DNA of 62,527 bases, counting the filler, from Basidioascus undulatus (Eukaryota): assembly GCA_000826855.1 (NCBI GenBank). It is 18 parts of 18 records of this genome, joined end to end, with 100 filler letters (N's around TTAATTAATTAA, not from the genome) between each part and the next. Parts side by side here need not be neighbours in the genome. Positions count along the whole stretch, not along the records: positions 60,302 to 62,527 come from JTLS01002864.1; 17 more parts are not named here. The stretch is one strand, 5' to 3'. Shown in pieces: positions 2,368-62,527 of this stretch. The first letter of the stretch is position 1. Each line of letters opens with the position of its first letter. The notes below the pieces were generated by a model. That model did no database searches and had not been told where the DNA came from. It saw nothing but the letters and a program-made list of their open reading frames with translations. A program made the position numbers and the translations under genes.

Positions 2368-3777
2368 TCACCTTCCCTTCCATTCCTGACACGTACTCGT
2401 GGTCCTCTCAGCTCATTTTGCACGCCCGCACTCACGCTCTCGTCTCGGAACACCGTGATCTCCTGCTCGTCTCGTCATCGGGTCAGAAATGAAGCCACCA
2501 TGACACCTCGCACATCAGAGCGTAAGACCGACCTGCTGCTTGAAGTACCTCCGGTTCTCCTCGTCGATGAGGACGAGGTTGAGGTAGTAGCGCACCGAGA
2601 ATTTCTTGTTGACATCCCGGAATGTCGGCGTGAGCTCGAACCCGCCGAGGAAGAGTCGTATAGGAATGGTCTCCCCTGTGCACCCCATCTCTGGTCAGCT
2701 CACGCGGAGGCGCTGGCATCGAGAAAGGCGGTGCGGACGCACCTCGCACGGGAGCGCCGTCCATAATCTCAAACTTCGTTATCGTCTCGGATTCGTTGTA
2801 CTGATTTGGTGCTGTGTGTGCGTGAAGTGAGCGCGAGCTTCGAGAGGGAATGCAGCCCGTAGCGACATACCGGCGCCCGTCGTCTCCCTCCGTATGATGG
2901 ACAGCTCCATGTGCTTGATCTTGATCCGCACGAGGAGGAAGTAGATCTTGCCCACGATCACGTCCTTCAAATGATATCTGTACCCGCACGTCCAATCAAC
3001 CCCACATCTGCCTTCCCCAGAACATGTGTGAACGGCATACGCACTTTGATTTGTTGTACTCGAACTCGATGTGCAGGCAGTCTTCGATGCCGACCTCCAT
3101 CTTGATGCTGTTGTTCGAGTCGGGCGGCATCCGGTACGAGTGTACCCAGATCTCCTTCTCCTTCACCACATCCGACATCCGCCGCGAGATGGTGATGCGG
3201 ACGAAGTACCTGTCCGCTTGCAGCGTTGATCAGCACGAGAGCGAGCCAGAGCGGAACGGGCCAGAGGACCAAGACGCACCGCAGCTTGACGTTGATGCCG
3301 TTGTACGACTCGTACTGCTTCTCCACATTCTTGAAGTTGAAGTCGAACGTCTGCGCTGTGCGCAGCTCGCCGGGCGCCGCCAGCTCCTGCACGAGCGACA
3401 GGAACTCGTAGTGGTTCCCGCGGTCGTAGAAGAGCTCTGTACCAGGAAGCCTCCATTAGACATCCACCTAAAGTTCATATGATGTCGCTACTCACCGATC
3501 GTGCCCACAAACTCCACCTTGATCCCATCGTGCGCCAGCTTCTTGCCATCCCGCACCCGCACCGTCACCTGCCACCATGCGCGAACTCAGCACGACACCC
3601 AGTCAACCCGAGATAGCCAAGCCTCACCTGCCCCGATACTGGCTCCCCGTCATAGTAGATCGGACAGGTCTCCTTGCGGTCCTTCTCCTGCTTGACCTCG
3701 ACCGTCTTCCGCTCGTCTTGCCCGTCGAGGGCGATCTGGACGTCGACGGCGGTTCCGAAACCGAAGAGAGCTGCCAT
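2368..3777 (-). CDS. VPS26: Retromer subunit Vps26 (multi-exon)
   Basis: Exons give MAALFGFG..IYYDGEPVSGQ, QELAAPGELRTAQTFDFNFKNVEKQYESYNGINVKLR, NNSIKMEVGIEDCLHIEFEYNKSK, DVIVGKIYFLLVRIKIKHMELSIIRRETTG, YNESETITKFEIMDGAPVRG and DEENRRYFKQQ|EITVFR. The exact stop codon (2368) is tentative. Confidence 0.96.
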
Positions 3778-43805: not shown

Positions 43806-43885
43806 CTCTCTGGCCGGGAATTGAACCCGGGTCGCCCGCGGTCAGGTTGAATGACAAGCGGATATACTAGCCACTATACTACCAA
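43806..43885 (-). tRNA. tRNA-Asp(GTC) with an 11-nt intron; the first ~3 nt are lost at the contig end
   Basis: Reverse strand reads TTGGTAGTATAGTGGCTAGTATA-TCCGC-TTGTCA-[ttcaacctgac]-C-GCGGG-CGACCCGGGTTCAATTCCCGG-CCAGAGA-G, followed by oligo-T. Confidence 0.92.
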
Positions 43886-44002
43886 NNNNNNNNNNNNNNN
43901 NNNNNNNNNNNNNNNNNNNNNNNNNNNNNTTAATTAATTAANNNNNNNNNNNNNNNNNNNNNNNNNNNNNNNNNNNNNNNNNNNNCCTTCCCTATTCTCA
44001 AC

Positions 44003-60201: not shown

Positions 60202-60301
60202 NNNNNNNNNNNNNNNNNNNNNNNNNNNNNNNNNNNNNNNNNNNNTTAATTAATTAANNNNNNNNNNNNNNNNNNNNNNNNNNNNNNNNNNNNNNNNNNN
60301 N

Positions 60302-61837
60302 CGCCTCCCACGCGCGCCCACACTCCTCCTCCTCCGCCGCCCTCGCGCCTTGCTCGCACCACCACCCCATCTCAGGGAACTATCTACGTGCCGCGCCGTC
60401 AGACGCAGAGCACACGTTCCAGGGGATGGTCTACCAGCCGGACGCGTGCGCGTGGGACACGCCGTTCATGCCCGTTACGGCGGAGGGCGTGGAGAGATGG
60501 GTGAGCGGACGGAGGAACTTGCTGATGATTGGGGAGTCGCATGCGCGTAGGTGTTCTCGGGGGAGCAAAGGCGCGGAGAGGAGGAGCGGACTGAGAGTGG
60601 GGTGGGTGGGGAACAGGATACGCGATGTACCAGGTCGCGGCCATCCTCGGCGCGGACGAGGCGTGGCTCACCCACGCTGTGTCGGCGAAGGTCGTGCACT
60701 TTGCGAAAACGGTCGGGAACGTCAATATTACGTACATGGTGAGACCTTCCTCGCCGTTCCCTTCTTCCTAGTCCTGCCGCACGACCCCGTACGAACCTGC
60801 TCGGCTGACTCGCCCCGCGTCGCGGATGGCAGTGGGACACGCACCTCTCGACTTCGTGCGTCTCCTTGTTTGCCCACTTCCCACTTGCTCTGAATATTTC
60901 GGCTGACCGAGTCCCGATCACCTAGCGTCCTTACCTGCGCAGCCCTCACCGAATACGATACGATCCTCTTCGGCTACGTGCGTCCTCCTCCCTCCTCCTC
61001 CTTCCCTCCTCCCCCCTCCTTCCCTCCTCTCTTCTTCATCCTTCCCCACCCTTCTTCTCCCTAACCCGCCTCCCCCTTCACAACAGGGGCATCACTTCCT
61101 GAACTCCTTCACCCGCCTCGGGTCCACGTCCCCCTACGCATCCGTTTGGGACCTCCCCACCTTCCGCACGCGCCTCGCAGAGTTCGTCTCCTCGCTGTAC
61201 GGCTGCTTTGATGAGGCTGCCCCTGCGCGGCCTAAGCCGAGGGTCGTGTGGGCCGGCATGCCCGCGCGGTGGCCCGATAGCCATCATCATTCACGTGCGT
61301 CTTCGTCCAGCCGTCTCGGGAGGGGGAGCGGCGGAATGGAGAGGGAACAGAGAAGGAGAGGAGATGGGAGTGGGACGGGGATGAGGGAAGGGCGAGAGAG
61401 CAGGCTGATTTGAGCGCGGTGGGGTGGTGGTAGGACCCGAGGAAGGGGACGTCGACGCGCGGAGCAACGCCCGCCTCGCGCGCTTCTCGGAGGAGGCGGC
61501 GGACGTCTTGAAAGATACGGACGTGCGGGTCGTAGATCAGTATGGGCTCACGCTGCCCGTCCGTCCCCTCTTCCTCCTTTTCTCCCATCTTCCTCTCCCC
61601 CTTTCCCGCAATCCTCTTACCTCCCAAACCTCTTTCTGACTCCCTACGTGCCGTTCACCCAGTTCATATTCGAACGTAAGCCCCCTTCCCGCCCCAGAAA
61701 GGAAGAGAAGAAGCCCGCGGAATCTGACATGGTGTGAGCGCGGATGGGCAGTCCCCGACGGCCTCCACTTCTTCAATACCGACGCGATGTGGGCGCTTGC
61801 TCGCGAGCTTATCTGGAAGATGGAGCTCAACGTGTAG
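60302..61837 (+). CDS. SGNH/GDSL-like (PC-esterase-type) protein, 3' part
   Basis: YQPDAC.W, LLMIGESHAR (GDS-like motif), RSNARL...VVDQYGLTLP and PDGLHF (DxxH). Stop TAG at 61835-61837. Confidence 0.5.
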
Positions 61838-62402
61838 GAGGAGGACGCGCTGGGGGCCGCTCCGTAGACATTTTTTTTAATTCATTTTTTCCCTTTTTCT
61901 ATTGCGGGCACGGAAGAGGTGTTACATTTATCTTATTCGTTCGGGCGCTGTGGGCCGGTGTGTGAGTGAGTGCGTGTGGACGCATCGGTTCCAGCCGTAG
62001 GGTCCGCTGGTAAAGGCGCGCAAGCTGCATGTGCATTCCTCATATCACCAGTGGAATAAATCTAACAACAGTTCAGGCAAAAGAGAGAGTGGACCATTGC
62101 GGGGTCATGCCTCGATCAAAATATGTGCCGACTGTACAGACGTACACGTAGCATGCACATTCAGTTTCTGTGGTCTCTCGCGCTTGCGTCAGATGCAAAA
62201 GATAAGCGACTCACAATAGTTCAATCTCGGTTAGTTTAGGCGTTAAGAGCTCTGCATGCGACGCGCTAGTGGGCAACAGAAGGGGTAAAGTACAGGAGGG
62301 AGAAGGGCCGGGCCAGCACCAAAACCACGTGGGCGAAAGCTTTGCACCAGCAGAAGACTCTTCCTTCGCCGCACCGAGCGCAACGTCCGGACGTACATCA
62401 GG

Positions 62403-62527
62403 TAGGGTTAGGTTGGGTTAGGTTGGGTTAGGTTAGGGTTAGGTTGGGTTAGGTTAGGTTAGGTTAGGTTAGGTTGGGTTAGGTTGGGTTAGGTTAGGTT
62501 AGGTTGGGTTAGGTTGGGTTAGGTTGG
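62403..62527 (+). repeat. Second telomere-like mixed TTAGG/TTGGG/TTAGGG array at the contig and window end
   Basis: 125 bp of TTAGG units interspersed with single TTGGG units and one TTAGGG, with the G-strand toward the end. Confidence 0.88.

Follow-up and report, generated by a model that had tools for sequence, protein, structure and literature searches.

Telomeric arrays of mixed TTAGG, TTGGG and TTAGGG units in Basidioascus undulatus and a candidate telomerase RNA locus with a compound template

The window, by which we mean the whole 62,527-nucleotide stretch of Basidioascus undulatus DNA that was analysed, consists of 18 contigs joined by artificial spacers of the form N44-12 nt-N44. Its last contig (60302–62527, G000:C2072) terminates in a repeat array of 125 bases, the unit string of which agrees with the text given in an earlier sequence-only reading of this DNA (Table 1). 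The subtelomeric gene of this contig stops near 61919, about 480 bp before the array, and its description as intron-rich is borne out by run X3, in which the stretch 60546–61752 contains five GT..AG joints. The same run places a 13-nt micro-exon of the gene at approximately 61663–61675, and no Pfam family was matched in any of the three frames tried. A contig of single-copy depth from run X1, which is possibly the source of the assembly, spans 62325–62402 with no differences and continues beyond 62402; run X2 gives no cover at 62361–62402, a lack that carries no evidential weight. A tRNA match (Rfam RF00005, 34 bits) is found at a contig end elsewhere in the window, at 43806–43888. By homology only, the host appears to be a basidiomycete: the best matches of a DUF726 exon, at 73–81%, are spread across Agaricomycotina and do not decide the lineage, and the best named matches of a Nuf2 exon (66–72%, 6 of 7 matches) are in Wallemia.

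Table 1. Features of the array-bearing contig at the end of the window, together with the second array of the window.
Feature	Position	Strand	Remarks
Artificial contig spacer before the array-bearing contig	60202-60301	.	
Transcribed, spliced gene, 5' end off contig	60307-61919	+	Joints from run X3
LINE 3' end, ~130 bp	62229-62357	-	50 genome matches, aligned boundary, RT frame in longer copy
Unique 45-bp spacer, LINE fragment to array	62358-62402	.	Origin not found
Telomeric array	62403-62527	+	TAGGG, 15 TTAGG, 7 TTGGG, 1 TTAGGG, cut TTGG; G-strand runs towards contig end
Second array in the window, at the end of C2062	41454-41547	+	10 TTAGG, 4 TTGGG, 3 TTAGGG counted

Contigs C2072 and C2062 have no subtelomeric DNA in common. 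The array on C2072 had also been described as the richer in TTGGG, and the proportions (7 of 24 units against 4 of 17) do lie in that direction but do not differ significantly (P=0.74). Genome-wide, TTAGGTTGGGTTAGG has 40 matches, all near contig ends, as compared with a single match for a control pattern. These matches fall on 12 of the 2992 contigs, so the arrays extend beyond the two in the window, and the G-strand points outward at all 12 of the motif-bearing contigs. One of them, on C373, comprises only four units (~28 nt), which might be coding sequence; it was left out when arrays were compared for sharing. Among the 11 arrays compared none of the 55 pairs is identical, although the distal order comes from the assembly and may represent a consensus of reads, and the stretches common to arrays do not exceed in length what a Markov model gives (P=0.32). 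In line with the earlier proposal, an origin by copying of one satellite was therefore rejected, there being no excess sharing between ends.

The genome also encodes a telomerase reverse transcriptase, matched on C2311 by PF12009 (E 1.2e-14). Its open frames, from which the gene was read rather than from an exon-by-exon model, contain the catalytic aspartates together with what we take to be the T motif and RT motifs 1, 2, A, B', C, D and E. Twelve outward-pointing contig ends, each with an order of its own, and a TERT with all of its motifs therefore mean that the arrays are almost certainly heterogeneous telomerase-made telomeres composed of TTAGG, TTGGG and TTAGGG. The proposal that a single enzyme writes every end stochastically stands as regards the one enzyme, given TERT and the 12 ends, but "stochastic" needs a qualifier because the order is rule-bound.

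These rules emerge from the 263 tokens of the 12 ends, which, with the final cut units left out, comprise 157 TTAGG, 52 TTGGG, 24 TTAGGG and 30 others. TTAGG precedes TTGGG in 45 of 52 cases, and TTGGG directly follows TTGGG once where 8.6 such pairs are expected (P=0.0002). The adjacency rule perceived in the two arrays of the window is therefore significant across all 12 ends, but in neither of those arrays by itself (P=0.09 and 0.43). It also has exceptions: TTGGGG, TTTAGG, TTAG, TTGG and one TTGGG-TTGGG are present at other ends. With leading flank tokens removed and the TAGGG of C2072 scored as the 6-mer, the first unit is of the TTAGGG type in 8 of 12 arrays, as against 17 of 245 later units (7%; permutation P=5e-6), and TTGGG is rarer over units one to seven (P=0.006). 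Several array junctions are recent breaks, either inside a LINE frame (C533, C1671) or after a fragment of 18S rRNA (C586), which makes today's enzyme a likelier source of the TTAGGG start than a relic. Taken together, the order rules fit one compound template rather than independent errors or two enzymes, and it is to such a template that the unit order appears to point.

Two observations concern individual ends. On C586 (L037:3834-3915) the telomere lies directly on the 5' fragment of 18S rRNA (Rfam SSU, E 1.9e-6), and the ~570 bp upstream of this fragment are rich in CTAAC motifs, which recur, partly inverted, on C2299. On C1352 and C1433 (the ends L040 and L041) the arrays continue for 20–60 nt into a common short non-repeat tail that is found at those two ends alone; 17 bases of the C1352 tail are identical to the C586 repeat. 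The tail may be either another element attached to telomeres or the product of an assembly join. Read-through of a telomerase RNA was rejected as its origin, the tail being present only at these two ends and differing from the flank of the candidate RNA described below.

The LINE fragment beside the array on C2072 has its 5'-truncated side facing the telomere and carries a telomere-like tail at 62229–62240. The 3' end of the element has 50 genome matches and a sharp boundary that carries telomere-like units; of 17 copies, 13 have TTAGG at the 3' junction. None of the genome copies found is full length; the longer ones contain an RT frame (RVT_1, E 8.9e-14) that ends soon after a C-C-H-C stretch. 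The closest full-length relatives are 29–38% identical and have an N-terminal APE-type domain, although Exo_endo_phos passes the cut-off in 2 of 7 of them and scores below it in 2 more, and the element is therefore likely to be an APE-type LINE, judging from these relatives; identity with Penelope/Coprina was discarded because the relatives are APE-bearing LINEs. The element is dispersed, with at least 57 of 2992 contigs showing any match by hand count. A truncated copy lies at, or no more than 45 bases from, the array on 3 of the 12 telomeric contigs (C2072, C533 and C1671), with the 5' end outward in all three. This enrichment (P=0.0013 against the 57 or more of 2992 contigs) has a weak control because subtelomeres gather transposons anyway. 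The clearest terminal copy, on C1671 (L039:1968-3170), comprises three telomere-like units, ~1,030 bp of 5'-truncated antisense element and then the telomere. The C533 copy is cut 33 bases from the cut point of C1671, both at GTT seeds, and in L075 the 5' part of a copy is inverted relative to the 3' part, as would result from twin priming. According to the available text of PMC12857005, the non-LTR elements MoTeR, FoTeR and Cnl1 have telomere repeats at their 3' end, a 5' end that points towards the terminus and a C-terminal REL endonuclease; FoTeRs occur in telomeres only. The present element resembles them in the 3' end set on telomere repeats and in the outward 5' end of the terminal copies, but it does not belong with MoTeR and FoTeR because it is dispersed and no REL domain was seen in it.

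In order to locate a template, the genome was searched with two 11-mer patterns, which gave 21 non-telomeric matches; 20 of these were compared, a copy of the C586 repeat being excluded. Only the match on C1672 holds all three units. At G000:C1672:2377-2392, on the + strand, the RNA reads 5'-CCCAACCUAACCCUAA-3' over 16 nt, or TTAGGG TTAGG TTGGG in DNA terms, and it consists of the conserved fungal template UAACCCUAA, as its last nine letters, plus 7 nt. The chance expectation of the 16-mer is 0.012 for CCCAACCUAACCCUAA itself, 0.07 for any linear order of the units and 0.39 for any rotation, and agreement over TTAGG-TTGG does not count as independent evidence, because C1672 was found through a TTAGG-TTGG pattern. 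The locus and NUF2 occupy opposite strands in a head-to-head, divergent arrangement, with the template ~630 bases upstream of the gene, after an AT-rich stretch and within DNA of 64–77% GC that reaches to the contig end. The region is single copy in the genome. It has no Pfam match in any of 12 frames and is apparently non-coding, although the absence of Pfam matches is no proof of this. Six gene models of Wallemia (P0272-P0277) fuse NUF2 and UBC9 into a single protein, which is probably a prediction merge of neighbours.

Folding of the C1672 region gives a z of -3.64 relative to 20 shuffles, with just 2 of 9 windows of 200 nt folding at z below -2, and the template is predicted to be 0.85–0.88 unpaired, the highest value of the 20 matches. 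No Rfam telomerase family matched the 1421 bases of C1672 searched, and no Sm-type site is present in the 780 nt from the template to the contig end, beyond which the locus may continue. The search for a pseudoknot with U-A.U triples returned 138 candidates, all unspecific. As to a CR4/5 domain, a P6.1-like hairpin at 2994–3010 (6 bp, 5-nt loop with U-x-G) is seen in the junction 2897–3022 in short folds only, with a pair probability of 0–0.27, and such a hairpin arises in 14% of shuffles. A 22-nt pattern for homologues of the candidate had no matches in metagenome contigs, where none of 170 stretches was confirmed as a NUF2 locus, and comparison of the junction flanks with the C1672 RNA beyond the template gave 1–3 matching bases at 4 of 12 ends. 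From the sequence features assembled here we infer that this candidate locus is, rather probably, the telomerase RNA of the fungus.

The arrays were parsed under a model in which the template is either copied or re-aligned, on a cost scale of our own. Of the 209 re-alignments in the parse, 185 rest on at least three paired bases. The commonest event is a stop after GGTT followed by a five-place slip back (105), the second is reading to the template end and re-aligning on GGG (51), and the third is re-alignment at the primer end (21). The order in CCCAACCUAACCCUAA ranks best of the 6 linear unit orders on parse cost and the candidate is 2nd of the 20 genomic matches; among 32 rotations it is 4th, the top two being its own 1- and 2-base rotations. 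Simple templates cost 842–1757, two to four times more than the approximately 400 obtained here. The model assumes that a 4-bp slip beats other registers about five to one.

These results suggest a scheme in which one telomerase RNA with the compound 16-nt template CCCAACCUAACCCUAA would write all of the units. In the usual course the enzyme would halt after GGTT and slip five places back, giving runs of TTAGG. Reading through to the template end would add TTGGG, and TTAGG would then follow TTGGG because the enzyme re-aligns on GGG. Alignment at the primer end would give TTAGGG, which would be the reason that newly healed ends begin with this unit. The template itself would be the ancestral fungal UAACCCUAA with its boundary shifted 7 nt further. 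We assign a probability of roughly 0.65 to this explanation, in which the C1672 RNA writes all units and the stop and slip positions and the boundary shift are deduced from the arrays and the candidate. A wider picture is finely balanced as a joint claim: C1672 would be the first telomerase RNA found on the Wallemia/Agaricomycotina side, with a template grown from 9 to 16 nt by a boundary shift, the TTAGGG part would now serve mainly in primer alignment and leave its trace in the unit that opens each healed end, a soft stop within the added part would set the TTAGG:TTGGG ratio, and the APE-type LINE, with its tail mimicking telomere units, would prime on, or be healed at, the ends.

It is unlikely that a compound-template telomerase has its true RNA at some other locus, or one missing from the fragmented assembly, and that C1672 is a chance match. 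The chance expectation of up to 0.39 speaks for this, as does the fact that the search covered only templates with one of the two 11-mers; a third pattern has 172 matches, 100 of them among the matches listed. The match on C2357 is parsed slightly better than the candidate (373 versus 394) and that on C189 nearly equally well. Both were nevertheless rejected as template loci, since they lack TTAGGG, and C2357 also folds no better than its shuffles (z -0.50) and has a kinase-like fragment downstream; C2299 was rejected because it sits in a repeated element. None of the three explains the TTAGGG start. The fragment on C2357 (L114:790-900) is short and protein-kinase-like with a glycine-rich loop, lies ~270 bases after a telomere-like 18-mer and resembles part of a pseudogene.

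A simple TTAGG template, with G misincorporated for A at one template U and G stutter in addition, is very unlikely as the origin of the units. TTAGG and TTGGG do differ by a single base, and telomere misincorporation of this kind occurs in Paramecium. Misincorporation and stuttering are also named among the causes of heterogeneity in the available part of PMC7857110. Independent errors, however, predict the 8.6 TTGGG-TTGGG pairs of which one was found, and random A/G misincorporation was rejected on account of this dearth; simple templates are moreover parsed far worse, and the TTAGGG start is left unexplained.

That the arrays stem from recombination, the LINE reverse transcriptase, a satellite or the assembly, and not from telomerase, is highly improbable. 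The LINE does end in telomere-like units and lies at 3 of the 12 ends, the C1352 and C1433 arrays do continue into a common non-repeat tail, and there are basidiomycetes without telomerase, the Microstromatales (PMC13234504, in the portion available). Against this, TERT is present with its catalytic motifs, the polarity is uniformly outward, there is no excess sharing between ends, and the LINE tails comprise just 1–4 degenerate units. Two telomerase RNAs, alleles or paralogues each writing one unit, have been proposed for Candida tropicalis (PMC7857110, available text) but are scarcely credible here, where the TTGGG runs that they would produce are almost absent and the candidate is single copy.

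The compound-template reading has parallels in several systems. In Schizosaccharomyces pombe and Saccharomyces cerevisiae irregular repeats result from partial template use and several registers (PMC7857110, as far as its available text goes), and mixed units within one array are common to these yeasts and to B. undulatus; the motifs and the phylum are different, the units here being near-canonical 5- and 6-mers, among which canonical TTAGGG survives chiefly as the unit that opens each end. For Ustilago, the accessible text of PMC9564094 and PMC10035886 gives the TER template as 5'-UAACCCUAA-3', and in these sources and the accessible part of PMC12506658 the telomerase RNAs of Ustilago maydis and Malassezia are intergenic and single copy, with this template in Ustilaginales. 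The C1672 candidate is likewise intergenic, single copy and in possession of UAACCCUAA. In the same excerpts Ustilago maydis and Malassezia make even repeats from templates of 9–11 nt, whereas that of the candidate is 16 nt, and their RNA lies in the 3' UTR of an EMI1-like mRNA, whereas the candidate is head-to-head with NUF2.

The Bombus telomere, TTAGGTTGGGG, is made on a single long template, which also yields some incomplete TTAGG products (PMC9841428, available portion). It shares with the present arrays a compound unit of TTAGG and TTGGG(G) and the single template, but in that text it is an insect telomere of mostly regular 11-mers, whereas plain TTAGG makes up 60% of the units here; the likeness is convergence, not kinship. 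Basidiomycete repeats include TTAGGG, TTTAGGG and TTAGG, the last in Postia and Heterobasidion (PMC7857110), and Kwoniella and Cryptococcus have TAAC(4,5), the Kwoniella telomerase RNA being stated in 2024 to be unidentified (PMC11185503). Short variants and a variable number of G residues are common to these repeats and ours; an A-to-G unit variant and a three-unit grammar are not reported for the four genera in the available text of the two papers.

The present three-unit repeat was not reported for a fungus among the papers listed, although bioRxiv supplements and most subscription journals may hold it, and the only basidiomycete telomerase RNAs among those papers are from Ustilaginales and Malassezia (PMC12506658, available part). 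The accessible parts of PMC9498494 and PMC7473861 contain nothing on this motif. Three longer motifs in the TeloBase motif table begin TTAGGTTGGG, with no organism given, and the full database may hold the repeat. Irregular telomeres are already known; not found in the literature searched were the present set of motifs and a telomerase RNA from this basidiomycete branch. A second chromosome end is by itself ordinary, and the interest comes from the order rules and from the locus that they indicate. The mixed repeat implies a template long enough to locate, and the C1672 locus could therefore be the starting point of homology searches that extend to mushrooms, Cryptococcus and Wallemia, in the last of which the region upstream of NUF2 is of interest. 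Here would be a natural case of a canonical TTAGGG telomere turning irregular, in which a single extension of the template predicts how the units are ordered, which of them comes first where a break has healed, and where the enzyme pauses.
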